Source of the DNA: a virus
Reading direction: 5' to 3' (one strand)
Length of the DNA: 64,000 bases
Virus record (IMG/VR): IMGVR_UViG_3300005264_000040
Location: 113,769 to 177,768 of that record
Shown here: positions 8,074-42,252 of the stretch, one piece after another
Layout of the letters: every line of letters starts with the position of its first letter
How positions within the stretch are numbered: the first letter of the stretch is position 1
The notes under the pieces: generated by a model
Told to the model about the DNA's origin: nothing
The model's input: the letters and a program-made list of their open reading frames with translations, nothing else
Database searches by the model: none
Translations under genes and position numbers: made by a program

Positions 8074-8342
8074 AGCATAATATGGCATACATATTTTAAG
8101 TGTGGTATCTCTGAAATGCACTATTTATAAGGTTTTGCTGCAATGTGCTTTCTCCGTTTTCTGGAATTTTTGGCTGAATTTCTAAAATCGTCCCATTTCG
8201 GAGTGCATTTCAGCACCCAAAAAGTACCTCAAACTCACTATTCATAGGGGTGCGTTTGACGTTCAACGGTCCTATTATATATATATAATAGAGTCGTTGC
8301 CCGTCATTTGCACCCCTTTGAATATGTACGCCATATTATGCT
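8074..8342. repeat. Nested inverted repeats: 22-bp IR (8074-8095/8321-8342, 1 mismatch) enclosing a 12-bp perfect IR (8111-8122/8202-8213) and the 81-bp palindromic element
   Basis: agcataatatggcatacatatt vs aatatgtacgccatattatgct; ctgaaatgcact vs agtgcatttcag. Confidence 0.85.
8244..8324. repeat. 81-bp pseudo-palindromic element, copy 1 (exact reverse complement of 42172-42252)
   Basis: Central perfect 20-bp palindrome CTATTATATATATATAATAG (8272-8291). The 30-nt arms flanking the (TA)6 core match at 22 of 30 positions. Confidence 0.95.
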
Positions 8343-8425
8343 GACATTACAAAGATATTACGAACGTAAGGGTTTTCTAAGGTATGAAAAAGAGGAGAAA
8401 TACCTTAATTTTCTGAAAAAAATTA

Positions 8426-8434
8426 TGGTATAAT
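8426..8434 (+). promoter_or_regulatory. Extended -10 promoter TGGTATAAT upstream of the baseplate/tail-fibre operon
   Basis: Perfect TGnTATAAT followed by an AAAGGAGGG RBS and ATG 8461; no TTAGCA box at the usual spacing. Confidence 0.65.
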
Positions 8435-8460
8435 AATATCGAGAAAAGGAGGGTATAAGT

Positions 8461-11400
8461 ATGGCTGATGACTATGTAAATCAAATTTTTGAAAAACGAA
8501 AGGAAAATATATTATTAGATTTGCAAAATAATATAAATAATGTATGTAATCAATATAGCCAAATGTTGGAAGAAACAGTCTCGGGGAATTTGAATATAAT
8601 AGAGGCTATGAAGAACAACGAAGACTTACAGACATTTTTTAGGCAAACTGCTGCTGATTTGTATCACGTAGCATATGCTGCTGCTTTCGAATCCGGAGCT
8701 ATTCCTTTCGTAGATAAAGTGAATCCTGAACCTGTAGGTGGAGCTTATAAATTATGGCAAGATTTTACTGCTAATTATGAAGTATTTAAAAGTCTTTGGG
8801 ATGAAGACCCTAATAATTTTATAGACCTTGTAAAAAGCACATACTTAACTCCTTTAGTTGATTTTTATAATGATTTTTCAAAAGATATAAAAACTTTATG
8901 GGATTTGACTTTATATATATTAGATTGGATAAACAAATTAAGTGATAAAATGCAAGCAGCTAATGATTTTGACCCTAAGGAAGTTAATAAAATTTTGAAT
9001 AAGCACAGAACTTTGTTTTATAATGCTGCTTATTATATGGATTATGGCGCAATTGATTTATATTATGGATTAAGCCCAAAAACATGGGAAGACTTTTTTA
9101 GTGAATTGAGAGAATATAATAATGAATTAAATGATTTTCTAGAGCCTTATTTTATATCAACCAAACTAACGATAGGAGTTATGAACATTCCAGGTGATTT
9201 TTGTAAAGGAGGAGCTAGTGCTTCTGATATAATTGGACTTTTGGAAGCAAAGACATCTTCTGTCAGCAATCTGACACAATATACTGCTGATGCTACAGGA
9301 TTAGCAGAAGCTAATTTTACACTGAACGATACTTTGTTTGGATTCCAATATTTTTTGTATTCAATGATGGATATGCTTTATAAAACAATAACAAATCAAC
9401 CTGGAGGAAAAGCTTTCTTTTACGAATTTGTAGAAAAATATGAAGCTAAACTTCAAAACTCATACTACGAAACTATTGCAGATGATTTTAAAAGCACTTT
9501 GGACAATCAGATAAAGATAGAAGAAACAAAAACACTTCCAGAAGATAATGAAAAACACTATTTTGAGCCTAATGAAGTACCAACAAGTAAAGTAAAAATA
9601 TTGGGATATTATGATGAATCAAATAATTTTCAAACTTATGTGCTTGAAATTATACCTGCCGGAAAAAAAGTATATTTAAAACAACAAGATTGGGATGTAT
9701 TAAAAGGAAGAACCATAAGTTATGTATATTCATCTGTAGCAGGTTTATCAAAAGTATTTGAATATTTGGATTTTATCATAAATGCAGTGGCATATGCTAC
9801 TGGCGATGAACAAACAAAATTAGATGTTGCTAGTACAAATGATTTTTTAGCAAAATGGTTAGAATATTCAGAAAAAAGGAAAGAAACATTCAATCAAAAA
9901 GGATTATCTGTTTTTAATACATTTGAATACAGGTTGCAATTTATGAATGAATTAGAAACATTAAAAAAAGAATTGAACGATTCTTATTACAAAGAAAACA
10001 AATATGAAAAATTTGATTCAGTTTTGCTTTTTTACAACGATTCTGTAGCTTTTTGGGAAGAGTGGAGTGCAAGGATAGAAGACCTTAGAGTTTTTTCTAT
10101 TCCTGAAATTGTTGATGCTAACTCTTTGAGTTTAGAAGAAAGAGTAAAAATTTTATATAATTTTTTATTAGAAATACCTTATGTCGGATTTGTTGTGTAT
10201 GTACTTGGAGTATCCACAACTTTTTATAAGGAGATGATGAAACAATTAAGGCAGGTTTTAACTCAATTTTGTAAAGATTTATTAAACCCAAGGATGTATG
10301 CATTTTTGGTAGAAAGAGCAGTACCTATACTCACTAATTTTAAACTAGCACTAGAAACTTTTGTTGATTTTTATGAGCAGATGATAAAACCAATAATAGA
10401 TTTTTTAACTAATATGGTTAATATGAATCTTTCTACAATGGAGAAAAAATTAAGAAGTTTTATTGATAACTTTCAAAAAAATGCTTTATATAGATTCGGC
10501 CTTGGAGAATATGTAGATAAATTACAAAATGTTCTAAAACTTGCAGACTGTGTTGTTAAAAATAAAGATTCAGAATTGGAATTGTTAAAAAAAGGATATG
10601 ATGCTCTTATAGGAAAAAAAGTAGAAATGGCACCTACACCTTTTTCAAATAGAGAAGAACCGGATAAAGTTGTAACTTCTAACAATAAAGTTTTAATGAG
10701 CAAAAAAGAGATAGAAACACGAACTCATATAAAGCCTCTTTCTATCACAGAAAAAGAAATGCAATTTTTATTTGGGACAGAAACAGAAGATGATTTTTTG
10801 CGTCAAATTTCAGAAATGAAAGAAATTAACAAAAAAACCACACAGAAGCAGAAACAATATGTGCCACCTGTAACGGTTTTATCTCCTGAAGTATATTTAA
10901 ATGGAGATGCTGAGGAATTGCTAAGAAAAATAGAAGAAATAGATAATAGAACCGGTAATCAAGCAAGCCTTATATTAATGCAAATTGCAGCTGAAGGTTT
11001 AGATAATATACCAGACGAACCTATTAAAGATATACCACCTGAAGCTTCTGAAGAAGAAAAACAACAAATAGAATTAGAAAATGCTAAAAGGGAATTAAAG
11101 AAAACAATAAAGAACTCACCTGATGCTGTAGATTTTTTTGAATTTGAAGAAGAAGATTTTGATTTAGCTGCTTATTATAAAGAACAAAAAGAAAAAACTT
11201 TAGAAGAACAAAGGCAAAAAATGAAAACAGAAATAGAAAAAGCAACCCTTCCTACAAATAAAAACGAAGTAAAAATAACAGCCGGAACTGTTATTGCTGC
11301 TAAATTAAAGAAATCAGAATTTAAACCCAAAACAAATGTTATCATAAATAATAACAATGTACCCAAAAATGAAAATACAGAAACAAACGCAAATGACGTG

Positions 11401-11784
11401 TTACCTTTGGATCCTCAAGAAGTTAATGCTATGGCTGGTATCAAAGAGAAGAAACAAGCTGAAGGCTTAGAATTTACTGAAGGAACTGATGAAGAATTAA
11501 CAAAGACCTCTTTAACCAATACAACATTGATTATCAATAATGTAAGTCCATCTGGTTATCCATCGCCTTCTATTGATGGAGCTACTCACCAAATGGAAGT
11601 ACATCCAGCTGTAGCCCAACTAGTTAATTCTTCTTTTAACGGATTAGAATTAACTTCAGGGGTAGCAGGACAGGTATTAAGTGAAAAAAATAAAGTAGCA
11701 GCTGAAATAGTGAAAAAGACTAAAGCAATAAAAAATAATGAAGTAATAGACGTATTGGCAGCAATGAACTATTTTACTAAGTAA
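8461..11784 (+). CDS. Large helical hypothetical protein (1107 aa), probably virion/baseplate associated
   Basis: Strong RBS and promoter; first gene of the operon containing the baseplate J-like gene; acidic low-complexity C-terminal third. Confidence 0.55.
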   Translation: MADDYVNQIFEKRKENILLDLQNNINNVCNQYSQMLEETVSGNLNIIEAMKNNEDLQTFFRQTAADLYHVAYAAAFESGAIPFVDKVNPEPVGGAYKLWQDFTANYEVFKSLWDEDPNNFIDLVKSTYLTPLVDFYNDFSKDIKTLWDLTLYILDWINKLSDKMQAANDFDPKEVNKILNKHRTLFYNAAYYMDYGAIDLYYGLSPKTWEDFFSELREYNNELNDFLEPYFISTKLTIGVMNIPGDFCKGGASASDIIGLLEAKTSSVSNLTQYTADATGLAEANFTLNDTLFGFQYFLYSMMDMLYKTITNQPGGKAFFYEFVEKYEAKLQNSYYETIADDFKSTLDNQIKIEETKTLPEDNEKHYFEPNEVPTSKVKILGYYDESNNFQTYVLEIIPAGKKVYLKQQDWDVLKGRTISYVYSSVAGLSKVFEYLDFIINAVAYATGDEQTKLDVASTNDFLAKWLEYSEKRKETFNQKGLSVFNTFEYRLQFMNELETLKKELNDSYYKENKYEKFDSVLLFYNDSVAFWEEWSARIEDLRVFSIPEIVDANSLSLEERVKILYNFLLEIPYVGFVVYVLGVSTTFYKEMMKQLRQVLTQFCKDLLNPRMYAFLVERAVPILTNFKLALETFVDFYEQMIKPIIDFLTNMVNMNLSTMEKKLRSFIDNFQKNALYRFGLGEYVDKLQNVLKLADCVVKNKDSELELLKKGYDALIGKKVEMAPTPFSNREEPDKVVTSNNKVLMSKKEIETRTHIKPLSITEKEMQFLFGTETEDDFLRQISEMKEINKKTTQKQKQYVPPVTVLSPEVYLNGDAEELLRKIEEIDNRTGNQASLILMQIAAEGLDNIPDEPIKDIPPEASEEEKQQIELENAKRELKKTIKNSPDAVDFFEFEEEDFDLAAYYKEQKEKTLEEQRQKMKTEIEKATLPTNKNEVKITAGTVIAAKLKKSEFKPKTNVIINNNNVPKNENTETNANDVLPLDPQEVNAMAGIKEKKQAEGLEFTEGTDEELTKTSLTNTTLIINNVSPSGYPSPSIDGATHQMEVHPAVAQLVNSSFNGLELTSGVAGQVLSEKNKVAAEIVKKTKAIKNNEVIDVLAAMNYFTK

Positions 11785-11801
11785 GAAAGGAGCGTAAAAT
11801 A

Positions 11802-13382
11802 ATGTATCCTGTAGATTTTGATGTTTTTAAAAAGAATTTCTTTAATCAATTGACAATGATGTATCCTAATATCAATTGGAATGACGAAACCAGTGTTGTT
11901 AAGAATCAAATTTTAAATCCTTTACTTTCAGAATTTGAAAAGGTTTATAAAGATTACACACAGATGTTTAATAATATAGAAAATTTGATGTATAACAATA
12001 ACGATTATGCTTCAGGAGAAACTTTGGATTTCATTGCTTCTTTATATGGATTAAAAAGAAATCCTGGTTCAAAAACCCGAGGCCTTTTAAGTGTATATAT
12101 TCCTTTTGAATTTTACCCTAAAATAGAGGCAGAAGGTTCTTTGATTTTTTCTGATATTATAATTAACATTGAAGGAAAACAATATATAATTCCAAAATTA
12201 CCTATGACAATATCTCATTTGAATACAGGTGTTGTACATGTTGAGTTTGAAGCTTTAGAAAACGGTTCTACAATTTTAGGAATAAACAAAAAAATAAAAT
12301 TTGCTTTAAACCCTGGAGGGGCATTTCAAAATACAATAGAAGTCAATGCCCAAATATTAGATGTGACTTCTGGTGAAGACGAAGAAACAGATGAGAATTT
12401 TAGAAAAAGAATAAACAACATAAAAAATAATATCTATTTAGTAAACAAGCATCAACTTATAGAATATTTTAAAGCAGAAGAGGCAATAAAAGCAGTAGAT
12501 TTTATAGATAATAACAATATTTGGAATTTAAAAGGTATAATTTCACAATATAAAATAGACAGTACAACAGGTGAAATTTTATCCGAATCTGAAATAGTGA
12601 AAGTACCATATGGATATGAATTAAAAATACAAGGTCCGGTTATTACAAAATCGGAAACTAAAACTTTATCTGCAATGACAGCATCTTATTCTATAGATAT
12701 AACTTCACGTTCAAAAACTGTAGTTTCTTACTTGAAAAACAATATCAGTAGATATACTAATTTTATAGATCCTTTTTATGCAGCAACATTTTTAGTATCT
12801 ACAGATACCACAGTGCCTGTATTAACAAATCTTAAATATGTAGAAATAGAAGGGCCATTATTATTTCCTTTGAAAGTATTAAGACTTTTTGATAATAAAG
12901 AATTAGAATATGGCAAAGATTTTATAACTGTAGTATATGAACCTGCAAATGCATTTACCAAGCTTCAAAAAACTATTTTTATATTCAGAGAATCATTACA
13001 ATCAGACATTCAAATAGAATATGTATCTGCAGATTTTAATCGAATTGAAGAACTTTTAAAAAAATTACCATTTGTTGCAAATGCTACCTTAAGTTATTTT
13101 AATCCTATAATGGTTCAATATACTTTTAATTCAGAAAACATTCCAGATTTTTCCGAATTCCAAAGACCAGATTATACATTAACTCCAGGTATAGATATAC
13201 CTTCTAATTACTTAGTACTACAAACAATGGTATCTGCAATGTTACCTACAGGAGGTATTACTCCATTTAAACCAATACCTAATACTACCACTATCTCAGA
13301 CGCTTTAAACACTTTAGGTATAGTAGATTATCCTCCTTATAAGTTTTACACCGTAGGGCAGCTTCTAGGAGGCGGAGAATGA
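11802..13382 (+). CDS. Baseplate wedge protein, Baseplate J-like
   Basis: ASGETLDFIASLYGLKRNPGSKTRG and SGEDEETDENFRKRI match the J/gp47 family motifs (A.G..LD.....G..R and G.D.E.D...R.R). Confidence 0.8.
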   Translation: MYPVDFDVFKKNFFNQLTMMYPNINWNDETSVVKNQILNPLLSEFEKVYKDYTQMFNNIENLMYNNNDYASGETLDFIASLYGLKRNPGSKTRGLLSVYIPFEFYPKIEAEGSLIFSDIIINIEGKQYIIPKLPMTISHLNTGVVHVEFEALENGSTILGINKKIKFALNPGGAFQNTIEVNAQILDVTSGEDEETDENFRKRINNIKNNIYLVNKHQLIEYFKAEEAIKAVDFIDNNNIWNLKGIISQYKIDSTTGEILSESEIVKVPYGYELKIQGPVITKSETKTLSAMTASYSIDITSRSKTVVSYLKNNISRYTNFIDPFYAATFLVSTDTTVPVLTNLKYVEIEGPLLFPLKVLRLFDNKELEYGKDFITVVYEPANAFTKLQKTIFIFRESLQSDIQIEYVSADFNRIEELLKKLPFVANATLSYFNPIMVQYTFNSENIPDFSEFQRPDYTLTPGIDIPSNYLVLQTMVSAMLPTGGITPFKPIPNTTTISDALNTLGIVDYPPYKFYTVGQLLGGGE

Positions 13383-13404
13383 TGTTTTTTGATGCTCACA
13401 AATT

Positions 13405-14193
13405 TTGGGAAAAGTTATGTCTTACAACATCCGAAATATAAAAGATATGACAGAAGAATTATTTGAATTTGGGATTAATGCAAATATTAAAGTTACATTA
13501 CCTGTATCTTTTTCTTATAATGCCGATACTAAAGAATATATTGGCATTGAATATGATAATGGAATAATAATTGAAAATGAAGATATTTTTGAAATTACTG
13601 AAGTTGATTTGTTTTTAGATGAGGAACTAGTACAATCTTTTACAGAAACAACTAAACTTCCAGATAATAAATTCAAGCTCAATTTTGACGTAGAAAGCTT
13701 ATTTGCTGAAGAAGAAAAAGGGATGAAATATTTTACTCTATTAGCAACAGGTCTTGTCTTTAATTTTGAAGGAGTAAAATCTTTATATGATGACTTGGAT
13801 TATGTAGGTGCTAAAATATTACAAATACATAATTTTGCTTCGATAGAAGAAGTAAGAAATGCACATCCTTTAAAAAGAGAAGATATAGCGTATAGACTTG
13901 CAACTGCAGCATTTGTGTTAAAAACAGGAATGTATTTTAAAAACAATTATTTAAATCTTTTGAGTATAATAAAAGGGATGCCTTATGCGCCAATAGGCGG
14001 AAAAATACTTGGTTATAAATATAACTCTTTATATGGATATACAGGAGTACAAATAGAAAGCAGAAATAATAAAAAATATTGGTTCTGGTTTTCGGGTGAT
14101 TTCAGAAATAATTTATGGTATAATATTGATGATGAAATAGAGAGGGGAGACCCACTTACTAATTTAATTGATATTGAAATTGTGAGGAGTTGA
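13405..14193 (+). CDS. Putative baseplate wedge subunit (262 aa)
   Basis: Lies between the J-like gene and the tail fibres; assignment is positional. Confidence 0.45.
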   Translation: MGKVMSYNIRNIKDMTEELFEFGINANIKVTLPVSFSYNADTKEYIGIEYDNGIIIENEDIFEITEVDLFLDEELVQSFTETTKLPDNKFKLNFDVESLFAEEEKGMKYFTLLATGLVFNFEGVKSLYDDLDYVGAKILQIHNFASIEEVRNAHPLKREDIAYRLATAAFVLKTGMYFKNNYLNLLSIIKGMPYAPIGGKILGYKYNSLYGYTGVQIESRNNKKYWFWFSGDFRNNLWYNIDDEIERGDPLTNLIDIEIVRS

Positions 14194-14198
14194 GGAAT

Positions 14199-16238: not shown

Positions 16239-16242
16239 TTTT

Positions 16243-17472: not shown

Positions 17473-17480
17473 AAAGGGGA

Positions 17481-19433: not shown

Positions 19434-19453
19434 TAGAAAGGAGATTTGAAGTT

Positions 19454-20641: not shown

Positions 20642-20642
20642 A

Positions 20643-20670
20643 GTCTCCCTTACAAAGGGAGACCTTTTTT
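20643..20670. terminator. Intrinsic terminator between convergent genes
   Basis: gtctccctt/aagggagac stem followed by a T-run. Confidence 0.75.
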
Positions 20671-21057
20671 TAATCTATTACAATATCTAAATAAAGAGGC
20701 TTCTGCTATATTTGAAGTTAAAAATAATGTTTCTTCAAAAGCTCCATTAATTTTATTTAATATATTATCCTTATCTTCTATGTAATAGTCATCTCCAAAA
20801 CTCTTTATATACTTTTCGTTTAATAAATCTAAAAATATCTTTTTTAAATCCGATTCGTATTTATCTATATCTTTATCTATTTTTTTTAATAATAATTCTT
20901 TTTCTTTTGCCGATAATTTAAAATGTTTTAATTCATAAGTACTTCTTTCTAAAAGAATTCTTTTTATTATAGGTAATAAAATATCAATTCTTAATTTTCT
21001 ATACGGGGTAGAAGAAAAACGAATAATATTTTTTCCAGCAAAAACTTGTTTCATCAT
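20650..21057 (-). CDS. Hypothetical protein (135 aa)
   Basis: GGAGGTG RBS; no recognised motif. Confidence 0.6.
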   Translation of the reverse strand: MMKQVFAGKNIIRFSSTPYRKLRIDILLPIIKRILLERSTYELKHFKLSAKEKELLLKKIDKDIDKYESDLKKIFLDLLNEKYIKSFGDDYYIEDKDNILNKINGAFEETLFLTSNIAEASLFRYCNRLKKGLPL

Positions 21058-21084
21058 ATTTAAAAGTCACCTCCATTAAAATAA

Positions 21085-21122: not shown

Positions 21123-21166
21123 CTCACAAGAAAGGAGTGAATTAGGGGATAGGAAAAAGGCACATG

Positions 21167-21490: not shown

Positions 21491-21522
21491 ATGTTGAACA
21501 CCTCCATATTTTCTTTAATATT

Positions 21523-21553
21523 ATTATATCATAAAAAAGTATAAATCTGCTAA
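21523..21553 (-). promoter_or_regulatory. TTAGCA-N16-TGATATAAT promoter
   Basis: attatatca 21523-21531; tgctaa 21548-21553. Confidence 0.75.
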
Positions 21554-22677
21554 CGTTTTTTTGCTATTTTTAAAATCATACTTCTTGTATTATCATCAAG
21601 CGATTTAAACTTATCAAGAGTTAGCCTCTCGACAAATTCATCTCCCATAAGGTTATTTAATGCAGCTTTCTTTTTCATAATTGCATCTCTATTTTCGTAA
21701 TAAGCTCTTTCGATTGGATCAAATTGCCCTTCATACATTCCATATACAACAGTTTCAGGATCTTTTATCATTTCTTTAGCATAGAATGGGTCTAATCCGA
21801 ACTGTTGGTCAAGACTTGCTATTTTTACGACAACATCTTCTGGATGTACTAAATTTCTATTATATACATCTTGGATTACACTTTCATATGCTTTCCATCT
21901 TTCTGGCTCAACAAAATCTTTTCTATCCATAAGATTTCTTTCAAAAGACGGACTAATTCTGTTTAAGTCAGAAGCATATTTTCTTAAAGGATTATCTTCA
22001 GAAATTTCAATACCATATTGAGATGCTTTTTGTTTTATTTTCCTTGCTAATTGAGAACGATATTGTGGTGGTATTTTATTACTGAACTGGGAAAATCTTA
22101 CAATAGCGTTCCTAACATGAGCTTCGTCATTCAATGGGTATTTTCTTATTTTTGTTCCGTCTTTCTTTTTTATTACTAATCCGAATTCAGAATCTGGCAA
22201 AGCATTTCTTTGGTCTGTATTTAATACAGAAGCTGTCTTTTTGAAAGGTTCTAAATCCTCTTTTGTCAAATCTACAATAGGAGTTTCTAAAGGTGTTTCC
22301 TTTGCGTATTTATTAAAAAAACTTTTTATTACTTTTGTGTTTTTATATACATTAGAAGCATATTTTTTCAAAGCCCAACCTAATCTTAAAGCAGCTGATT
22401 TTATGAAATCTTTTGGTAATTTTTCATAAGTATTTTCAAAATAAAATGCAGATAATGATGCTGTATCAGCGTCATAAATAGGGAATCTTCCTACTACAGC
22501 TCCTTTCTCATCCATAAAGCCTATTGCGAAATCATTAATATCATGTTTTTCTACTTCGGATAAAGGTGGAACGTAAGAAGCTGTCTTCTCTAAACTATTT
22601 ACTCCTAATGCTGATTTTAATAATGTCAAACCTGGGTCATCATATTGATCTAAAATTAAGTTTGCTAATTTATACAT
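21550..22677 (-). CDS. Head-associated protein with tandem DUF6582-like domains
   Basis: LNTDQRNALPDSEFGLVIKKKDGTKIRKYPLNDEAHVRNAIVRFSQ matches the DUF6582-type motif as I recall it. A diverged N-terminal copy (NDFAIGF...GRFPIYDADTASLSAFYF) and several KTAS/KYAS motifs are present. Confidence 0.6.
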   Translation of the reverse strand: MYKLANLILDQYDDPGLTLLKSALGVNSLEKTASYVPPLSEVEKHDINDFAIGFMDEKGAVVGRFPIYDADTASLSAFYFENTYEKLPKDFIKSAALRLGWALKKYASNVYKNTKVIKSFFNKYAKETPLETPIVDLTKEDLEPFKKTASVLNTDQRNALPDSEFGLVIKKKDGTKIRKYPLNDEAHVRNAIVRFSQFSNKIPPQYRSQLARKIKQKASQYGIEISEDNPLRKYASDLNRISPSFERNLMDRKDFVEPERWKAYESVIQDVYNRNLVHPEDVVVKIASLDQQFGLDPFYAKEMIKDPETVVYGMYEGQFDPIERAYYENRDAIMKKKAALNNLMGDEFVERLTLDKFKSLDDNTRSMILKIAKKR

Positions 22678-22695
22678 AATATGTCAAACCTCCTC

Positions 22696-32457: not shown

Positions 32458-32497
32458 ACACAAAACCCCCTTGTAGATTTTAATATTTCATATGGTT

Positions 32498-32528
32498 ATT
32501 ATATCATAAATCAAGTTATCGATGTTAA
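32498..32528 (-). promoter_or_regulatory. Variant promoter TTAACA-N16-TGATATAAT
   Basis: attatatca 32498-32506; tgttaa 32523-32528. Confidence 0.65.
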
Positions 32529-32532
32529 TAAC

Positions 32533-32559
32533 AAAAAACCGGGAGCATATCAGCTCCCG
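32533..32559 (-). terminator. Intrinsic terminator
   Basis: cgggagc/gctcccg stem followed by a T6 run on the minus strand. Confidence 0.75.
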
Positions 32560-32565
32560 AATATA

Positions 32566-35500: not shown

Positions 35501-38500
35501 GCGCTTCCTATTACTTCATAAGGCATTTCTCCTATCTTTATTCCATTTACATATGCTTCATATATTTTGTTGGAATATTTTACTAAAAATACTAATTCCT
35601 CTGAATTTTGATCATTTATAACCATATCTAATTCTGGTAATTGTGTTGGGAGATTATAATCAGTTCTCCAACCTACAATACCAATTTCGTTAGGTGGATA
35701 ACTCCATTGAAATGATGTACGAGCAATATTTAACCCCATTTTTTTTATTGAAATATTATGTAGATCTGGTTCAAATCCAACATAGAAAGCTGTATCATTT
35801 GAAAAACCTAAGAAAACTCCAAATTCAAAATCAGGATTATTCATTAATTTCTCTTTATCGATTCTGAAAACAGTTACGTATTTTATTTCAGAATCAAAAT
35901 CATTCATTGGATTTATCTGTGCAGAAACTGGCAAGTTATATTTCCATGAACCTCTAAAATTAAAATAATACCAAACTAACATATAGTCCCCATGGGATAC
36001 ATGCTTTATTTTTTCAAAAGTATTTAATGTTGGATCTATATTAAAAATACAGATAGAACCATCACTTTCGTCCTTATAATAATTAATATTTGGAGTTAAT
36101 TTACTCCATGGATAAAAAGCAAATGAATCTATAGGAGTTCCAAAATATATTTCAGCATCAAAAAAAGGTGCCCCATTTACAATATTCAAATATATTGGAT
36201 GACAATAAAACATATCTAAAGAATGTGTTCCTACTTGGCTAACATAAGCTTCCATTACATTTTCAGTTTTAGAATATTGAGAAACATCTATATCAAGGAC
36301 TTCAAGGTTCAGCCATGCTACTATATTTTCCATAGTTTTTAAAATAATGCCTATAACAGCAAATGTAGATATGTAACCAGCAAAAGAGAAAGATTGAACT
36401 TTTATATTTGTAAGTTCATTAAATTGATAAAAACCATCAGTTAAATCTCCTTCAATTCTAAGATTATTTACATACATAAATATACGGCCATCTTCTTCTT
36501 TTTTTAAATGGAGATAAATAGAATCTCCGTCTTTTAAAAAATTTAAATAATCAAGCACATCTTGCGCATTCGTTATTTCAATGTCTGTATATACTCCATC
36601 TTTCCTATAATATAAACGTTGATTTACTATAAGAGGATTCCCATCTTGCACATTAGTAGTTTCAAAAGTATATACAATAATATTGTCATAATAAAGCATA
36701 TAAGTTCCATTAGGTTTCCAATTTGGATTATCAAATTCATATATTATACCTATTTTTTTTATATCGTTATTTTTATAATTTTTCAATTGATAAACAAAAC
36801 CGAATTCTTTGAATTTTTCAACTGTTAATTTTTTTGGCAATGTATAATTATTATTGCTATAATAATCGTATGTCCATGAAATAATATTTGGATACATATA
36901 AATCTTTTCGAATAAAGCATTTTCATTAAAATATGTTCCATAATAATGATTTTCAATTGGGGCATGACCCCACATAAAGAAATGAGTTTCATTTACTTTA
37001 GGGAATTCTGTTAATCTTTGTTTCAAATTAGAATTTTTTGTCTCGTTTTGTGTAAAATGCACTACTTTACAATCAATTGGTATTTCTTCTTTGTTTCCTG
37101 AAATCATTATCGAACTTTCAAAATATATATCGTTTATTTCAAGTTTAACTCCAAATTTATAATCGGCAGAACGTGAATACCTTACTGAAGTATATGCTAT
37201 ACCATAAATTCTATCTGTATCATCTACATAAGTAGTAATATCAAAAGATGCATACTCATTTTGTTCATCTATTGATAAAATTTTGAAATAATATTTTTCG
37301 TTTATTTTTGATATTTTCATTACTACTTGCTCGTCGTACAAAGGATCGAACCAAAAAGTTTCATCTCCTATTGATATAAATCTTCCCGAAAAATAAGGTT
37401 TGTTATAAGAATTTCCATTGTTCAATGTAAATGCAATGTGCTTTCCTTCCCATGGATTATCAAAATTATCACTTAGCAAAAACCATAACCTTATATAAGT
37501 ATATGTGTTTGAATTATAATTTTCATGATTGTAATAAATTTTAAAGTTTTCTAGTGGTATCAAAAAATTAAATTTATGGGCAAATATAATTTTATTTTTA
37601 GACCAAGAATAAGGCCATGCAGCTGGTCTTATATTTGAAAATTGGACTTCATATTCATTGTAATAATCAATGTAATTTTCATAATCACTCCTGTAATCGG
37701 TTTTTGGAGTAGCTGCCATTTTTCCTACAGTTGTTTGTTGGAACATTTCAGGTAATATAAATGTATTGCTCATCCTTGGCATAACGATACTTTTTAAGGA
37801 ACCTCTATCTTTAAATTTTACATACAATTTTGTTGTTTGTGCGGAAAAATCATAACGTGATTCATATCCTATTGTAGTTATGTAATTATATTGTTCTAAA
37901 GCATCATGAATTTCAAATTCTTTGAAAAATATTCCATCTACATGATAATACCATCTTTCATATTCATCTCTTTTTATACCTATTCTGAACGTATCCCCTG
38001 CATGCAATGACATTAAATGCTGATTAATAGGATGATCCGGATTATCATAAAAAATAGAATCAGTATAAACATTTCTAGTTGCAATTATCCTATCTACAGG
38101 TTTTTCCTGGTTGTTGTTTGTAGTACCAATTTCAAATTCAAAATATTGTGGTGGAACGCTATCTGTATATTTATTAAAATTATCGCAATCAAATGTAATT
38201 CCTAGCAAACTCATTTGCCAATTTTCATAAGTGAAATCTTCATTGATTTGAATTTCTAAACTTACTTCTTCTAAATCTTTTAATATTAATGGAGTATGAT
38301 TCCAACCATCTTGCCATGTTCTTAACATAAAATCATACCATGACCAAAGACTTCTATCCCCATCTTTTTCTATTATTAATGTTTGAACAAACTCCGAATT
38401 ACTTATTCTACTCCATGTAGGGGCTAACTCAAAATAATGCACTGTACCGTTATAATATCCTCCATAATCTCTATAATCTCCCGCAAAAAAACTTGTAGCT

Positions 38501-38532
38501 ATAGGAGTATATACATTAGCTAAATTTGGCAT
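32566..38532 (-). CDS. Giant fibre/adhesin paralogue with multiple lectin-like modules and IND anchor motif
   Basis: 1988 aa. HPINQHLMSLHAGDTFRIGIKRDEYERWYYHVDG aligns with HPLINHLLSKKEGDTLEIGLKLDEENKWRMYVDD of 24019..32457. C-terminal IDVIYGYVTTIINDERDTREL. Confidence 0.65.
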   Translation of the reverse strand: MPNLANVYTPIATSFFAGDYRDYGGYYNGTVHYFELAPTWSRISNSEFVQTLIIEKDGDRSLWSWYDFMLRTWQDGWNHTPLILKDLEEVSLEIQINEDFTYENWQMSLLGITFDCDNFNKYTDSVPPQYFEFEIGTTNNNQEKPVDRIIATRNVYTDSIFYDNPDHPINQHLMSLHAGDTFRIGIKRDEYERWYYHVDGIFFKEFEIHDALEQYNYITTIGYESRYDFSAQTTKLYVKFKDRGSLKSIVMPRMSNTFILPEMFQQTTVGKMAATPKTDYRSDYENYIDYYNEYEVQFSNIRPAAWPYSWSKNKIIFAHKFNFLIPLENFKIYYNHENYNSNTYTYIRLWFLLSDNFDNPWEGKHIAFTLNNGNSYNKPYFSGRFISIGDETFWFDPLYDEQVVMKISKINEKYYFKILSIDEQNEYASFDITTYVDDTDRIYGIAYTSVRYSRSADYKFGVKLEINDIYFESSIMISGNKEEIPIDCKVVHFTQNETKNSNLKQRLTEFPKVNETHFFMWGHAPIENHYYGTYFNENALFEKIYMYPNIISWTYDYYSNNNYTLPKKLTVEKFKEFGFVYQLKNYKNNDIKKIGIIYEFDNPNWKPNGTYMLYYDNIIVYTFETTNVQDGNPLIVNQRLYYRKDGVYTDIEITNAQDVLDYLNFLKDGDSIYLHLKKEEDGRIFMYVNNLRIEGDLTDGFYQFNELTNIKVQSFSFAGYISTFAVIGIILKTMENIVAWLNLEVLDIDVSQYSKTENVMEAYVSQVGTHSLDMFYCHPIYLNIVNGAPFFDAEIYFGTPIDSFAFYPWSKLTPNINYYKDESDGSICIFNIDPTLNTFEKIKHVSHGDYMLVWYYFNFRGSWKYNLPVSAQINPMNDFDSEIKYVTVFRIDKEKLMNNPDFEFGVFLGFSNDTAFYVGFEPDLHNISIKKMGLNIARTSFQWSYPPNEIGIVGWRTDYNLPTQLPELDMVINDQNSEELVFLVKYSNKIYEAYVNGIKIGEMPYEVIGSANLKNVQIWISHIDRDTIWLKEFSIQIQNPNTIDVMIQRPSIIRSIDIPTGLIKTYQALTQQVPIDCYLEVLYSVKPNDYEEMNLDLIQQQLPSSSTIEGLIYNYTEDGLEIKVDLENGFTKGYIKFPMYKRFSILKFHRIMFDVTYYMPFTDASAMYVYFKDSEGYVYKYGINSLSTYYGASMYIDDPNGNRIRTWGTTNYSHTIGIKTDFRLKNIVGYRYRIDDSLNTSNSVGTDLSTDNFFKKKFIDIVEFGIEFDAKNLTSLQPIYLKNMNFYAGYNKPPIIDAVRTYFMTRDLNIVSSDIWHLHKKELSFEANRLWPNIERKIDMDIYAADLVERFLYVILANQLQRSTQMTKLDSTPKHFGLSNEITIISHVSWLQHKEKNMEFANLIQRVSSNANMIDCMVKITDIKPEPQPWLDLIRVIPVSKENTFEFADLYQHVVCNYFTIHKLNDYENWNATGPVIINGNAISLDFTDREDLTLYKETPLSGPLKNLQFTLEFDIHSEVPFGQLDAPFHMITRLSWNKEVPLVSADLNIDYSINQIISWFDGILRYFIPFGTSYKPILEYDQLSKNRTTTNLNGFASTSQNIHVKLTLKHLSNGVIFNYTLRDENSNSITHAQLIEYNKPEYKIMDLKGVEITITDSGPNNPNNAYLTISNLNTYIKADIPIDMIIWSHFSTQIDIDLPIATQYAIRKRNILNAPLYWQGISSERNIESVVLWDDIQTANWLSSRVVMAGHLSKTFDGYVLQHSEDEKDFEWQLWLIRNAKHPIEYSLISAYVKQNIELSENAPLMIIVTHSNVLENSIFQTSVSENSIESVPKHCGIKTENLIEGMEMHHSKKEHPMELANILTHHRIMKGINVTVVKVIKKKATLFLNHSSKDVRMVAGKYVIGVPRWGVSSMLKWEDFFLAYPNVRQYIRKIKYVDNGKEIYINKYAKIDVIYGYVTTIINDERDTRELDYSDYINEIKEGTMW

Positions 38533-38538
38533 ATTCTA

Positions 38539-41500
38539 TCACTCCCAATGTAAAGAATTATCATTTTGAATTTCATCTAAATCTCTTGGATCATTAATTA
38601 CAACTTTTGCATAAGTATAATAAATATCTAATACACCTTCTGCGTTTTGATATGTTACATTGCCATTTTTAACAATACGTCTTACTATATCTTTATCTAA
38701 TAAATTTTGTACAAGTTTTTCATCTATTTTGTACAAATAAGCCATACTATAAGAATCTAAATTTTCTTCCATTCCAGGTAATGTAATGATTTTATCTGAA
38801 TAATTCACAAATTTTAAAGCTTCTACTTCTAATACCAAAACGACTTGTGAATCTATTTCATTTTTTTCTCTGTAGAAAATATGAACATCAGAATAAAGTT
38901 TCCTATAACTCATTGTAATTGGAATTGTTGTACTTATTATTTCATTTTGCAATTCTTTCTGAATCGCATATTTTGCATCTATAATTTGAGGTAATTTGTG
39001 ACTAAGTATAAGTTGTAATTCTACATTGTTTTGCAATATTCCATAATTACTGTTAAATGTGTTTATGTTTATATCATCAATTATCTGAGATTTAGAATAA
39101 ACACTTAATAATTTCATTTTTGGATTATCGTTTATAATCTGAGAATTTATTGTGATTGTTTTTTTGATTTCATATTGAAGTTCCATTAATATATTTTTAC
39201 TTTTGTTTATAGTTTTTAATATTGTTAAAGCTTTAATTTGGTTATTCCTAAACAAATGATAAATAGGTCTTTCTACAACTGTAGTATAAACATTTTTTTC
39301 TACGAGAGTTACTATTTTATTATGTGCTTCCAAAATTATACTTCTTAATTTTGAAGTTGCATATATTGCGTTTATTGTGTTTGATTTCATAATTTCTTTT
39401 AAATATAAATCCATTTGCAGATTGATCATCTTTCTCATATTCAAAATAATATCTGAGCAAAATTCAACTGCTGTTTTTGAATAAATAGAATTATTTGTTC
39501 CTATTCCTTTTGTGTCTAGGATTCCTAACAATTTAGAATAAGAACCAACTAACATTGTATCTTTCGCTATATATTGAGTTTCCAAATAAAGCTTTTTTCT
39601 TTCACTATGATAAATTGTGCATTCTATGTTTTTTTCATGTTTGACGATTTGTTTCACTCTGCTATTAAAACTTAAAAATTTGGTTTTTAAGAAGAATAGA
39701 TATAATTGATAATACTTAGGTAATTCCTTCAAAGGAGTTGTTCTTATTAAGAATTCCGGATAATCTCTAACATCGTTATAAATAGCCCACATTGAACCAT
39801 GTATAAAATAAATTTCCTTATTTGGATTATAACGAGAAAATTCAAACCAAGCTGGAGTTTCTACTCCATATACAAAAGAATTTGTTGTGTATTCTTGCTC
39901 AAAAAGCACATCAGTTCCTTCAAATTGCAAAACATGATAAGCTGGAATAGCAACTTTCTTTCCTCTTAAATTTACAGTTATCGTTGAAGAAGTTGGATTT
40001 ACAACGTTTGTTGAAGGAATATATTGAATTTCATAGGCTACAGCCCCTATTTCTATTTTATTCACAAAAGTAGATTTAGCTATTGCTTTTACATTTTTAT
40101 AACTAACAGTGTTAAATAGCAAATGTGTATTTAAATTATTATTTGATGAAAAGGTACCACACAAAATCCCATTAAGTTCTAAATTCCATTTTGCTGTAAT
40201 ATTTTCATATATATCCATGCCTAATTCTTGTGAAACTACTTTAAAAATATCAGCTAATATAGGAGCTTTTGGTCGTGGTAATATTATCATATCAGATTCA
40301 AAATAATTAGATATTTTAGATACTATAGAAGTATAGTAAATATCAATAAACGCTTTTTGTAAAGGTGAAACTTTTTTTAACCAAGAATAAATTCCTCTAT
40401 AATTATGATCGTCATAAAAAGCTACTTCAGATACTATCGTTTTCTTTTTTAAGAAAGTTAATGAAGTAGCAACATCCAAGTTGTTTTCTTGGGTTATTAT
40501 CCTTGCTATTTTAATATCTAAAAATTTCTGCATTCTATAAAACTTTGATATTATTGCTCCAATAAAAATAGAAACATCTTCTATTTTAGAAACTCCAACT
40601 TTTAAATCTTTTTTTGTTGATAAATTAGGCCACAAAACATATGCTGTGAAATCTATATTTGGTATGTATTTAGGAGCAAAAATATAAACACTAGCTGGAT
40701 GTGCTTTGTCTGTATCTGTTCCTACAGGTATGATTGCATTAGGATAGAAAATTTGATACCCTTTTAAAAATACAATATTTCCCCAAGTATCACCATGTCC
40801 TAAATAAATCAAACCTTCCATAAACTTGCTATATGAATGCAAAGAGTCATAAATTTCAAAAGAATCATACCCAGAAAAAGCTAATAATTTATAAGGATCA
40901 AACCATGTTCCGTAAAAATAAGAATAATTATATTTAAATGGTTCGGATATAGGAACTATTCTTTCTCCATCATCTGACGGTTTTACATATATTGTAGAAC
41001 GTCTTGTTCCGGATTTTGCAAAAACAGGCAGAAAATTCGGATTATATTGTACTATTGCTGGTTGTGGGAAAAAACCTTGCATGTAATCAGGCAAGAAACC
41101 AAATAAATCAGTCATTGATTTTTTATCTTTTACTGTTATTTCCTTTGTGCTTAAATCTATATTCAAAAGATATACAAATCTATCTGAAGTTAAAATTAAC
41201 CTTGTATTACCTACCCAAGCACCTACATAAGGTGTATTTAAAATTAAAGCAAAACCGTAATCATCTATTACGGTTGCAGGTCCCATATCATATCCAGTAA
41301 CATGCCAATCATTAAAGTCTTGCCCAAAACTTATATATCTTATTTCTTTTGAAGTATAGATAGAGTTAGATGTTGCATTTATAATCAACATCTTATTATT
41401 AGGAGAAAAAACTATAGGAGAACTTACCATGTAAGGTGGAAACCCACCTATTAACCTTACTTCTCCTGTTCCATTATTAATTTCTATCAAATAAGTTTCT

Positions 41501-41934
41501 GGAGCTAACCTGTTGAAAAAATACATATACCTTTCGTTAGAAAAGAAAGGCACAGGGATTAAACCATTTGGAATATCTATCTCAAATGGAAAGTCAAATC
41601 TGTAAGGAGTAAAAGATGTTAATGTTGGATCTTGAATTTCATCAAGTCTCAACAACGTAATATGATCAGAAGCTATTTCTAAAGTACCAGATACATTATT
41701 TCCTGAAACTTGTCCAGGAAAGTTTCCAATTCTATAAAAGTTTAAGTTCCTATCTTTTATGTAATCATATAATAAAGCATTAGGTTGTATCTCAATTTGG
41801 AATGTTCCAGTGCCAGCATATGGATACAACCACATTTTATTTAAATCATCACTGCTTCTAACTATACCTATATTTTCTTTCCCGGATACAAAATGGATAC
41901 GGTATCCACCAAAATTATATATCATATCCGCCAC
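38539..41934 (-). CDS. Fibre-family paralogue with beta-propeller-like N-terminus, repeat shaft and IND anchor motif
   Basis: 1131 aa; GAGGTGG RBS; C-terminal LDIYYTYAKVVINDPRDLDEI. Confidence 0.62.
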   Translation of the reverse strand: MADMIYNFGGYRIHFVSGKENIGIVRSSDDLNKMWLYPYAGTGTFQIEIQPNALLYDYIKDRNLNFYRIGNFPGQVSGNNVSGTLEIASDHITLLRLDEIQDPTLTSFTPYRFDFPFEIDIPNGLIPVPFFSNERYMYFFNRLAPETYLIEINNGTGEVRLIGGFPPYMVSSPIVFSPNNKMLIINATSNSIYTSKEIRYISFGQDFNDWHVTGYDMGPATVIDDYGFALILNTPYVGAWVGNTRLILTSDRFVYLLNIDLSTKEITVKDKKSMTDLFGFLPDYMQGFFPQPAIVQYNPNFLPVFAKSGTRRSTIYVKPSDDGERIVPISEPFKYNYSYFYGTWFDPYKLLAFSGYDSFEIYDSLHSYSKFMEGLIYLGHGDTWGNIVFLKGYQIFYPNAIIPVGTDTDKAHPASVYIFAPKYIPNIDFTAYVLWPNLSTKKDLKVGVSKIEDVSIFIGAIISKFYRMQKFLDIKIARIITQENNLDVATSLTFLKKKTIVSEVAFYDDHNYRGIYSWLKKVSPLQKAFIDIYYTSIVSKISNYFESDMIILPRPKAPILADIFKVVSQELGMDIYENITAKWNLELNGILCGTFSSNNNLNTHLLFNTVSYKNVKAIAKSTFVNKIEIGAVAYEIQYIPSTNVVNPTSSTITVNLRGKKVAIPAYHVLQFEGTDVLFEQEYTTNSFVYGVETPAWFEFSRYNPNKEIYFIHGSMWAIYNDVRDYPEFLIRTTPLKELPKYYQLYLFFLKTKFLSFNSRVKQIVKHEKNIECTIYHSERKKLYLETQYIAKDTMLVGSYSKLLGILDTKGIGTNNSIYSKTAVEFCSDIILNMRKMINLQMDLYLKEIMKSNTINAIYATSKLRSIILEAHNKIVTLVEKNVYTTVVERPIYHLFRNNQIKALTILKTINKSKNILMELQYEIKKTITINSQIINDNPKMKLLSVYSKSQIIDDININTFNSNYGILQNNVELQLILSHKLPQIIDAKYAIQKELQNEIISTTIPITMSYRKLYSDVHIFYREKNEIDSQVVLVLEVEALKFVNYSDKIITLPGMEENLDSYSMAYLYKIDEKLVQNLLDKDIVRRIVKNGNVTYQNAEGVLDIYYTYAKVVINDPRDLDEIQNDNSLHWE

Positions 41935-41956
41935 CTCGTTCTTTTCTTTTCACATT

Positions 41957-41987
41957 ATTATATCACACAAAAAAGTTAATATGCTAA
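41957..41987 (-). promoter_or_regulatory. TTAGCA-N16-TGATATAAT promoter
   Basis: attatatca 41957-41965; tgctaa 41982-41987. Confidence 0.75.
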
Positions 41988-42031
41988 TAACAGTTTTCGG
42001 ATACTTTCTTAACAAAGAGGACATATGTACT

Positions 42032-42049
42032 TAATATGGCGTACATATT
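42032..42049. repeat. Third copy of the taatatggcgtacatatt motif found at 8074-8095 and 8321-8342
   Basis: Exact reverse complement of 8321-8338. Confidence 0.85.
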
Positions 42050-42171
42050 TCAATGGAAATATCACTGTAATGTGCATAAACAGTACTTTTAAACGTATGG
42101 TCTTGACATTTACATACCACTCTTAGAAAGGCATTTCTATACTGTTTATTATACGATCGTCGCAAATCCGC

Positions 42172-42252
42172 TATTCAAAGGGGTGCAAATGACGGGCAAC
42201 GACTCTATTATATATATATAATAGGACCGTTGAACGTCAAACGCACCCCTAT
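42172..42252. repeat. 81-bp pseudo-palindromic element, copy 2 (inverted relative to 8244-8324)
   Basis: Base-for-base reverse complement of copy 1, including the (TA)6 core (palindrome 42205-42224). Confidence 0.95.

Follow-up and report, generated by a model that had tools for sequence, protein, structure and literature searches.

The 64,000-nt window analysed here, part of the genome of an otherwise unknown marine-sediment jumbo phage of about 184 kb, contained two copies (c4 and c5) of a non-coding imperfect palindrome, each in a divergent intergenic region (7951-8460 and 41935-42404, respectively). To the left of c4, an 887-aa gene of no assigned function (5287..7950, minus strand) was the first of a leftward head/portal operon, and to its right a 1107-aa orphan gene (8461..11784, plus strand) opened a rightward baseplate/tail operon. 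At c5, a 1131-aa gene (38539..41934, minus strand) headed a leftward operon of giant proteins, and the thymidylate synthase gene (42405..43004, plus strand) lay on the other side, with GTG 42405 as its likely start because the promoter falls within the longest open reading frame.

Palindrome c4 covered positions 8238..8325 (genome 122006-122093), with two outer GC-rich boxes of 8 bp (8246-8253 and 8310-8317), and c5 proper covered 42179-42250. Both were centred on a perfect 20-bp, TA-rich core (8272..8291 and 42205..42224), and neither palindromes nor cores are assigned a strand. The first-pass annotation had reported an identical inverted pair in divergent intergenic regions, and repeat search and direct reading bore this out: 8244-8324 and 42172-42252 are exact reverse complements of one another (81 nt, 100% complementary), the palindromes are imperfect (46-nt arms matching at 80%, 39-nt arms at 79%), and the site has the proposed dyad-symmetric architecture, GC-boxed and TA-centred. 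An exactly repeated 81-mer cannot be due to chance. The 81-nt unit was exact but too short, as ENA and Logan, two further assemblies of the sample behind the IMG/VR record, extended the exact block to 104 nt (contig positions L055:858-961, reverse complement of window 42149-42252, unstranded, i.e. the c5 palindrome and the first 30 nt of its flank). Both of these assemblies have 122 nt that the window contig lacks at 8324/8321. Past the 104-nt block, identity between c4 and c5 fell to about 84% over another 100 nt or so, as far as a shared motif described below. Each arm of c4 carried three dimorphic blocks of 2-3 nt, and the DNA fold of c4 was estimated at -25.2/-25.7 kcal/mol for the two strands (z about -7.8).

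The pair itself was real but not special, since a count of further copies yielded a family of five genome-wide, with c1, c2 and c3 upstream of the window. These imperfect palindromes of about 90-105 bp were the only long palindromes of the genome, shared the same 20-bp core (5/5 copies), and contained all ten occurrences of the outer 8-mer box, which was found nowhere outside their arms. All occupied intergenic gaps (five of the roughly twelve longest) and stood at the heads of the main transcription units of the genome. Seven of the ten copy sides faced a gene start within about 330 nt, and the remaining three abutted the upstream gene at its stop codon. Three copies lay between co-directional genes, and c4 and c5 between divergent ones. 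Copies c2 and c3 flanked the replication module (SNF2 helicase, PD-(D/E)XK nuclease and family A DNA polymerase). At c1 and c2 the element began directly after the upstream stop codon with no canonical terminator before it, and c3 had its own canonical terminator just upstream.

The palindromes belonged to a larger cassette, in which the palindrome was followed by a flank (type F1 or F2), then, after some 100 nt, by a 6-5-6 inverted-repeat motif and, after a further 90 nt or so, by a TGnTATAAT promoter and the gene. The flank of c4 facing the 887-aa gene (8224..8245, minus strand) was of F2 type (88% over 51 nt to the c2 flank facing the gene downstream of c2), and that of c5 facing the 1131-aa gene (42158..42178, minus strand) was of F1 type, which also adjoined c1, c2, c3 and c4 (the latter in ENA/Logan). 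The operator-like 6-5-6 motif (AATATG-N5-CATATT plus an asymmetric extension) occurred exactly five times in 178 kb, each time near a palindrome, outward-oriented, 163-188 nt from the palindrome centre and 79-125 nt ahead of a start codon; it was missing at c3 and on one side of c5. In the window it was found toward the 887-aa gene (8075..8094, minus strand, 187 nt from the c4 centre), toward the 1107-aa gene (8322..8341, plus strand, abutting the palindrome in this contig and 163 nt from the centre in ENA/Logan) and toward the 1131-aa gene (42029..42048, minus strand, 166 nt from the c5 centre).

The interval between motif and gene held either TGnTATAAT or a full sigma-70-type promoter, one of them a 12/12 match to consensus. 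Promoter-like extended -10 sites (TGnTATAAT) preceded the 887-aa gene (7976..7990, minus strand), the 1107-aa gene (8424..8443, plus strand, 27 nt upstream, of a 20-mer class that recurred upstream of the gene after c3) and the 1131-aa gene (41951..41966, minus strand, a member of direct-repeat family D1), and a sigma-70-type site (TTGATT-17-TAAAAT with TG; 42338..42366, plus strand) preceded the thymidylate synthase gene. No predicted promoter around c4 and c5 read into either element, which argues that the element works there as DNA. The genes downstream of different copies were mutually unrelated (the 1131-aa and 1107-aa genes, for instance, are not paralogues), so that the cassette has moved independently of its genes.

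Conservation differed along the palindrome. All arms (10/10) agreed at positions 1-10 (core) and 29-36 (outer box), and all six private substitutions fell between core and outer box, although this contrast of six against zero has weak statistical power, as some substitutions may represent one inherited event and five near-identical copies offer no covariation. The asymmetry between arms was retained in 20/20 block pairs. In two copies the inner arms were inverted relative to the flanks, over the whole inner part in c1 and over the inner 50 bp or so in c3; these two independent events had different breakpoints, which lay in conserved boxes, and Logan contigs confirmed the linkage of flank to arm in c1 and c2. 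An exact 104-nt block next to an 84% flank suggests gene conversion, selection or both. The earlier suggestion of selection or ongoing recombination thus holds, the identity of c4 and c5 far exceeding that of their flanks, and concerted evolution by itself could explain much of it. Stable hairpins were predicted on both strands, but the arm mismatches raised the estimated cost of a cruciform from about 10 kcal/mol for a perfect palindrome to about 52-59 kcal/mol (some 43 dearer), which makes recognition as duplex DNA likelier; the core by itself was cheap to open.

Taken with the coupling to motif and promoters, these features lead us to favour, tentatively, a cis-regulatory unit, hr- or operator-like, with predicted protein binding and regulatory output. 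Among the architectures initially listed, the dispersed origin/enhancer palindrome of the hr type fitted, and the protelomerase target and recombinase crossover site did not. Baculovirus hrs are discussed both as enhancers, through binding of IE-1 dimers, and as origins, and are bound as duplex or cruciform (PMC6669502). Like them, the phage elements are dispersed, intergenic, AT-rich imperfect palindromes with retained mismatches in a large dsDNA virus, and the association of the cassette with promoters parallels the tie of hrs to early promoters. Unlike the cassette, hrs of these insect viruses are built as tandem ~70-bp repeats containing ~30-bp palindromes, whereas the phage has a single ~100-bp palindrome per site and a separate 6-5-6 motif about 175 nt away, shows no sequence similarity to hrs and has no known IE-1-like binder. 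PeSL (promoter-early stem-loop) cassettes of T4-type phages combine a hairpin with a promoter and serve as substrates of homologous recombination in module shuffling (PMC2839356, PMC4122927). They resemble the present cassette as small composite regulatory units between genes, ahead of unrelated ones, but their stem-loop is an ordinary terminator, while the phage hairpin has about 40 bp per arm and no U-tract, is not the terminator of c3, and exists in five copies only.

The main rival to the regulatory cassette is a set of multiple replication origins, or bifunctional origin/enhancers, in which an initiator would bind the inverted GC-rich boxes and melt the TA core; we consider it a possible, if rather unlikely, account. 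GC-rich boxes around an AT-rich centre that is perfectly conserved are a classic layout of replication origins too, which counts against the regulatory reading. The oriS and oriL of herpes simplex virus have an A+T palindrome centre and inverted GC-rich initiator boxes, exist in more than one copy and lie between divergent promoters. The phage elements share the pure A+T centre, the flanking inverted boxes and the multiplicity, with c4 and c5 between divergent promoters, but the phage lacks a UL9-like initiator and three of its five copies lie between co-directional genes. The invariance of core and boxes, the low opening cost of the core alone, the bracketing of the replication module by c2 and c3 and the dual description of hr palindromes (PMC6669502) are all in keeping with origins. 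On the other side, no tailed phage is known to have five sequence-identical origins, neither an initiator nor a DnaA-box cluster near the copies was found, and an origin would not need the fixed coupling to outward motifs and promoters before unrelated genes. GC skew tracked gene strand only and was therefore uninformative on origins.

Functionless or selfish recombinogenic repeats, i.e. a hairpin-prone sequence duplicated with pieces of promoter regions, seem unlikely; in this reading break-induced gene conversion would keep the copies alike, and template switching would flip them. The 104-nt exact block, with its 30 nt of non-palindromic flank followed by decay, has the look of a conversion tract, and the inversions in c1 and c3 recall hairpin-associated small inversions, a process that accounts for isomers but not for the existence of the element or its tie to promoters. 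No carrier was found in the relatives and databases searched, which suits a selfish repeat and counts against the regulatory reading. Against this, no transposase or homing endonuclease was linked to the element, its five copies all sat at operon heads (none within genes or at random intergenic sites), the middle varied between an invariant core and boxes, and a partner motif co-occurred strictly at a fixed distance.

An RNA element, with the long imperfect hairpin as RNase III site, 3' stabiliser of mRNA or unconventional inter-operon terminator, is highly unlikely. It would suit the hairpins predicted on both strands and the position of c1 and c2 directly behind stop codons, but c4 and c5, between divergent promoters, are probably untranscribed, a canonical terminator already precedes c3 (a role that the palindrome therefore does not fill there), and neither a U-tract nor an Rfam match was found. 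Copies in identical contexts also differed in orientation, which would give their RNAs different internal loops.

Programmed inversion, with c4 and c5 as crossover sites and the 34-kb tail module flipping between two functional isomers, a possibility that the first-pass annotation had raised, is hardly credible. The exact inverted repeats, 81 nt in the window contig and 104 nt in ENA/Logan, and the promoters retained by the inner operons would permit it, and a precedent exists in the Campylobacter group II phages CP21, CP220 and CPt10 (~180 kb, AT-rich), whose 28-55-kb modules, inverted between relatives, are separated by four near-identical extragenic repeat regions at which recombination is held responsible (PMC4546147). 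Those regions, however, are 1-2.9-kb arrays of 72-86-bp units, unlike the phage palindromes, and those phages carry transposases and homing endonucleases, none of which was found here. No profile match to Phage_integrase, Resolvase, ResT/TelK or Y1 transposase was obtained in the record, leaving no encoded tyrosine or serine recombinase for the mechanism, and the additional 5.3 kb in the longer assembly held no Pfam-annotated gene and no gene above 416 aa. There are five quasi-symmetric copies, of which three separate co-directional genes, and any two form a direct as well as an inverted repeat; c4 was arranged alike in the two full-length assemblies (IMG/VR, ENA), counter to two isomers; and flipping would leave the linkage of promoters to genes unchanged, so that nothing would be switched. 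Rare unprogrammed isomers through homologous recombination are possible. Telomere resolution sites of protelomerase type, or relics of hairpin telomeres, are a negligible prospect: dyad symmetry and an alternating purine-pyrimidine TA centre loosely recall N15 telRL/telO, but the arms are imperfect, no ResT/TelK catalytic domain was found, five internal copies would split the genome into six pieces, contigs of two assemblies read through all of them, and the phage has a lambda GpA-type terminase.

For the favoured cis-regulatory cassette, the best functional model, by analogy, is the SPBRE of phage SPbeta, an element whose role long went unrecognised, present in about ten intergenic promoter regions and eventually identified by ChAP-seq and EMSA as the site of the master repressor MrpR (PMC10516654). 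It could apply to the palindrome and/or the 6-5-6 motif: in both large phages a conserved element is repeated in intergenic promoter regions. SPBRE is a 15-bp motif of a temperate phage, bound by a repressor with a tyrosine-recombinase fold, whereas the present element is about 100 bp long with a TA core, and no protein of Phage_integrase fold was detected. The outer GC-rich boxes and TA core of the duplex palindrome would be the target of a predicted DNA-binding protein, dimeric or multimeric and encoded by the phage; the 6-5-6 motif would be contacted by the same protein or by another, and jointly these factors may co-regulate promoters firing away from the element, as enhancer, silencer or insulator. 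The cassette would have been copied ahead of unrelated genes and its copies kept alike by gene conversion and by selection on core and outer boxes. The flip-flop of inner arms would be a by-product of homologous recombination or template switching, as would inversions of the intervening segments, if any, presumably with no dedicated recombinase involved. The element, which marks where the main transcription units of this phage begin, is thus most likely a protein-binding control site, or possibly one at which replication starts, and not a switch for flipping the tail segment.

The 81-nt inverted identity described by the first-pass annotation, between window positions 8244-8324 (c4) and 42172-42252 (c5), was 100% complementary both by repeat search and in the raw sequence. 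Each copy was, as had been stated, itself an imperfect palindrome (overlapping arms 79-80% alike in the repeat search) with a perfect 20-bp TA-rich core (8272-8291 and 42205-42224), and on the gene map both copies lay in divergent intergenic regions. Counted over the whole 177,768-bp record, the element was present five times, and the 20-bp core was identical throughout. Copies c1, c2 and c3, upstream of the window, were centred at genome positions 3333, 43524 and 62271, while c4 and c5 were centred at 122049 and 155982 (window 8281 and 42214). These were the sole long palindromes of the genome in a palindrome scan, and the outer 8-mer box AGGGGTGC had 10 genome occurrences, exclusively the ten arm ends. 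Every locus carried a single palindrome, tandem arrays being absent. Co-directional gene pairs surrounded c1, c2 and c3, and divergent pairs were restricted to c4 and c5.

Read outwards from the centre, each arm began with its 10 core bases, after which a 3-nt block, a 5-nt box and a second 3-nt block (first two bases variable) completed the inner half; the outer half held a 4-nt box and a third 3-nt block, then the 8-nt outer box, which is GC-rich, and finally an 8-nt, largely symmetric segment. Each of the three blocks, like the first flank base, existed in two versions, and the two arms of all five copies displayed opposite versions (20/20 block pairs differed). Core and outer box were invariant in 10/10 arms and all six private substitutions fell between them, although site-specific constraint statistics are weak with only five, near-identical copies.

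Folded as DNA, both strands of all copies adopted one common hairpin of four helices, interrupted by three small internal loops (-20 to -26 kcal/mol, z -5.4 to -7.9). The cost of converting duplex into two hairpins, from a rough nearest-neighbour estimate with DNA parameters and the junction term omitted, amounted to 52-59 kcal/mol for the native element (72-86 bp), against 9.7 kcal/mol for an arm-symmetrised control of equal length and the same value for the 20-bp core alone. In a simple model the supercoil energy released rose from 23-27 kcal/mol (sigma -0.03) to 50-59 kcal/mol (sigma -0.06), so that full extrusion would be break-even at best. The conserved arm asymmetry was estimated to cost ~43 kcal/mol, which argues against cruciform formation as the selected property. 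On these modelled energies, recognition of the element as duplex DNA is more likely, the boxes being symmetric and the TA centre easy to open or bend.

The surroundings of the palindrome were repeated along with it. One flank type, F1, was found at c1, c2, c3 and c5, plus c4 in other assemblies, and a second, F2, at c2 and c4. A 6-5-6 motif (AATATG-N5-CATATT with an asymmetric extension) occurred exactly five times in the genome, at c1, c2, c4 (twice) and c5, always pointing outwards, 163-188 nt from the palindrome centre and 79-125 nt ahead of a start codon. A predicted TGnTATAAT-type promoter sat between motif and gene, the one at c2 reaching 12/12 of the sigma-70 consensus with TG, and the sides devoid of the motif (c3 right, c5 right) displayed predicted TTGAnT-16/17-TAAAAT promoters. 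Motif and promoter positions thus define a cassette that starts with palindrome and flank, continues after ~100 nt with the motif and after another ~90 nt with the promoter, and ends with the gene. The genes behind the cassettes were mutually unrelated. An 887-aa gene headed the portal/head operon (with the portal itself at window 1864-3804), a 1107-aa gene the baseplate/tail operon and a 1131-aa gene the giant-protein operon; the other blocks were thymidylate synthase, a replication module (SNF2 helicase, PD-(D/E)XK nuclease and family A polymerase) and two blocks of unknown genes.

Judged on this anatomy, a cis-regulatory cassette is the best fit and is tentatively preferred, because the palindromes stand strictly at operon heads, are the exclusive partners of an outward, operator-like motif at fixed distance, were copied ahead of unrelated genes and have an invariant core and boxes. 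A dispersed phage operator set, with binding by its regulator demonstrated, has been described for SPbeta (SPBRE/MrpR, PMC10516654). In SPBRE-like sets a conserved element is repeated at the promoter regions of several operons, which the phage palindrome matches with its five operon heads, and the 6-5-6 motif also fits, standing before five start codons and nowhere else. The SPBRE/MrpR system relies on a recombinase-fold repressor, whereas no protein of the Phage_integrase fold was detected in the record.

Among possible DNA-binding candidates, the phage encoded an HTH protein of 406 aa as well as a sigma-like factor, together with many ORFans; beside the copies themselves, no DNA-binding candidate emerged when the flanking genes were scanned against Pfam and PHROG. 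The sigma-like factor (PHROG 351, Pfam Sigma70_r3) was located at genome 111197-111931 on the minus strand (genome stretch L049:3197-3931), and multisubunit-type RNA polymerase beta/beta' homologues at genome 91676-98030 (stretch L048); either could read the phage-specific motif. A 345-aa protein (genome 63684-64721, L046:9684-10721) gave ~20 weak, unrelated Pfam matches without any single significant stretch, and is probably repetitive or of low complexity.

Other features were recorded among the promoters and gene starts. A direct-repeat family, D1 (window 21508-21558, 41942-41992 and 60575-60625), was the reverse complement of a recurrent promoter class (TTAGCA, ~18 nt, TGnTATAAT) distributed before many operons on both strands. 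The longest ORF of thymidylate synthase, from TTG 42345, contained a predicted TTGATT-17-TAAAAT promoter, and the start is likely GTG 42405, behind a strong ribosome-binding site. To the right of c1 (genome ~3425-3440, stretch L043), between the palindrome and its 6-5-6 motif, a strong Shine-Dalgarno sequence was followed by a two-codon mini-ORF (ATG AAA TAG).

An origin, or a combined origin and enhancer, is possible with a lower probability. The AT centre between inverted GC boxes speaks for it, as do the two copies bracketing the replication genes. In HSV oriS and oriL, where DNA synthesis starts at the element with a cognate origin-binding protein, an A+T centre is flanked by inverted initiator boxes, and the phage element displayed the same layout with its invariant TA core and outer boxes. 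GC and AT skew followed gene strand only and were uninformative on origins, no DnaA-box cluster was found near the copies, and no initiator was recognised. The dispersed palindrome architecture of baculovirus hrs, suggested by the first-pass annotation, was retrieved here as multiple intergenic copies of an AT-rich imperfect palindrome; hrs consist of tandem repeat units at each locus and are discussed as enhancers and/or origins bound by a viral transactivator (PMC6669502), whereas each phage locus holds one palindrome.

Next in standing, and doubtful, is a neutral recombinogenic repeat, which lineage restriction, a conversion-like tract and arm flip-flop would favour. Regarding lineage, TerL alone retrieved no close relative in IMG/VR, while a TerL profile retrieved 80 loci and five whole related genomes, the best TerL relatives being 31-43% identical and located on 60-210-kb contigs. 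The five whole genomes shared 12-20 genes with the phage (terminase, portal, multisubunit-type RNA polymerase and sigma-like factor included) and harbored terminator-size hairpins only, with no comparable palindrome and no sequence match; nothing comparable was found in 1.23 Mb around TerL of the 80 relatives. Pattern scans with the core, arms plus core, and outer box plus core returned nothing in IMG/VR or JGI metagenomes, and in 185,579 GTDB species genomes only two non-palindromic matches, taken as chance. The 17-mer scan for the 6-5-6 motif gave 34 single matches in unrelated contigs, likewise taken as chance. A blastn search of the phage collection with the region gave no match, Rfam gave no family in the window, and the 1107-aa neighbour had no homologue among 5.8 billion proteins. 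The phage is an orphan.

Gene order also differed from that of distant relatives. Compared with three of them (G003-G005), a ~45-kb block (genome 77-122 kb) was inverted here and ended at c4; in these relatives the 367-aa to 257-aa block shared its strand with the genes for portal, RNA polymerase and terminase. In another relative (G001), the 375-aa, 228-aa and portal homologues were contiguous, while a 12-kb rightward tail operon and c4 intervened here.

The conversion-like tract appeared when assemblies of the same sample were compared. The ENA scaffold (184,070 bp) added 5.3 kb at the left end, with no additional copy, and had the same right end as the record. On the right side of c4, both this scaffold and a Logan contig from the same sequencing run contained 122 nt absent from the window between 8324 and 8321 (positions 939-1060 of L055, the sequence of those assemblies at c4), bounded by short AATA-type microhomologies. 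With the 122 nt restored, the exact c4/c5 block was 104 nt long (L055:858-961, reverse complement of window 42149-42252) and was followed by ~98 nt with 16 mismatches, then by the shared 6-5-6 motif; on the other side, homology ended two bases beyond the outer box. The probability of 104 unchanged positions at 16% divergence is ~1e-8, hence the block was recently homogenised, is under selection, or both. The selection or ongoing recombination proposed from perfect identity thus held for an exact block lying beside a diverged flank. Relative to ENA, the window contig was also short of ~160 nt and of 12 nt in coding sequence close to the left end of the genome (genome ~499 and ~976; L053:5776-5937 and L053:6414 in the ENA left-end DNA). 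Given these losses, the 122-nt gap is probably an assembly or variant deletion, and the several small deletions of the IMG/VR record may reflect either errors of assembly or variation in the population. At c4 the arrangement was the same in IMG/VR and ENA. Logan contigs broke at the repeats, and the c4-c5 segment formed a contig of its own (34,045 nt).

Taking the flank as reference, F1 adjoined the 'B' arm in c2, c4 and c5 and the 'A' arm in c1, while in c3 only the inner two blocks were exchanged and the outer block stayed with the flank. The arm patterns of c1 and c3 amount to two independent inner inversions, with breakpoints in different conserved boxes, and unitig-based Logan contigs confirmed the flank-to-arm linkage at c1 and c2. 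Imperfect palindromes are known to flip-flop through recombination or template switching between arms.

The assemblies displayed further differences and repeats. GC-rich repeats of ~115 nt, 78-80% alike, were found at the ends of both full-length assemblies (window 63886-64000; L053:116-229 and L053:4559-4627). This family, present at the right window end and in the additional DNA of the left end, probably causes assembly to stop in a genome that is circularly permuted or terminally redundant. On the minus strand of window 4488-7950 (L055:1-564), one 1191-aa product was called in ENA and overlapping 887-aa and 295-aa ORFs in the window, which suggests a frameshift or indel difference between assemblies. 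Roughly half of the sequence words from around c4 were present in the sequencing run of a second study (X2), and no RNA sequencing run was found that contained the region.

Two further phage systems combine some of these features. PeSLs of T4-type phages are a repeated, promoter-linked cassette as well as a recombination substrate (PMC2839356, PMC4122927); their stem-loop serves as an intrinsic terminator and precedes an early promoter, and close relatives differ by indels in the flanks or by gene swaps, whereas the phage displayed promoter-like sites and no terminator-like site at any palindrome. Genomes of Campylobacter group II phages are divided into invertible modules by repeat regions (PMC4546147), which are kilobase arrays, unlike the phage palindromes. 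By analogy, the element would work most like baculovirus hrs, herpesvirus oriS/oriL or SPBRE/MrpR operator sets; as it differs from each family in defining features, it is a member of none. A more speculative and unlikely reading is a tailed-phage counterpart of hrs and oriL, in which a phage protein would bind five identical TA-centred palindromes in duplex form. These would enhance or insulate the flanking operon promoters and at the same time provide a jumbo phage with multiple replication origins, arm asymmetry being selected against cruciform extrusion and host palindrome nucleases while the symmetric boxes are kept.

Several candidate identities were dropped. A sequencing or assembly artefact was discarded since the element was recovered with unique flanks by three assemblers, and a cos or pac site because of the five copies and their distance from the terminase. 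An intrinsic terminator did not fit, as the element has no U-tract and c3 has its own terminator. A REP/BIME, MITE or IS200/IS605-type element was rejected on the lack of a Y1 match, the number of copies (only five) and the lack of copies found in host genomes. An msd-like template for the orphan retron-type reverse transcriptase of the phage was set aside as well, only c4 having flanking inverted motifs and the reverse transcriptase being 6 kb from the nearest copy.

An RNA-level role for the element is improbable. No promoter was predicted to read into c4 or c5 and a canonical terminator of its own precedes c3, which indicates that the element acts as DNA and not simply as a terminator.

Programmed inversion of a 34-kb segment by a recombinase, one of the options raised by the first-pass annotation, is very improbable. 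Profiles for Phage_integrase (PF00589), Resolvase (PF00239), ResT/TelK (PF16684) and Y1 transposase (PF01797, RAYT/TnpA) had no match anywhere in the 177.8-kb record, while control genomes were positive, and thus no serine or tyrosine recombinase was detected. The extra 5.3 kb of the ENA contig encoded no gene >416 aa and gave no Pfam match, and RecA/UvsX and endonuclease VII families were also without match. All predicted promoters travel with their operons and there are five near-palindromic copies instead of two, so that inversion would switch nothing. Hin/Gin/Cin or tyrosine invertase segments, in contrast, possess two inverted sites, a flip-dependent promoter or fusion and a local recombinase, and occur in both orientations within the population. 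Rare, unprogrammed isomers may exist in the phage. Telomere resolution at a protelomerase (telRL/telO) target can be set aside, since such targets occur as one site per genome forming linear ends, with hairpins that give fold-back reads, whereas here ResT/TelK had no match in the record and contigs read through five internal copies.

In jumbo phages with their own RNA polymerase, cis-acting DNA is poorly understood and promoters are known for a few model phages; to our knowledge, origins are known for almost none. The palindrome represents a compact, well-delimited candidate control element, with five copies, invariant core and boxes and a strictly coupled partner motif, and the operons downstream of it are known ones (head, tail, replication and nucleotide metabolism). 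Three assemblies of one sample differed or broke at the palindromes. If only a recombinogenic repeat, it would illustrate concerted evolution and flip-flop cleanly in a phage and serve as a caution for assemblers; if an hr-like enhancer or origin, it would extend to tailed phages a design of insect and vertebrate DNA viruses.
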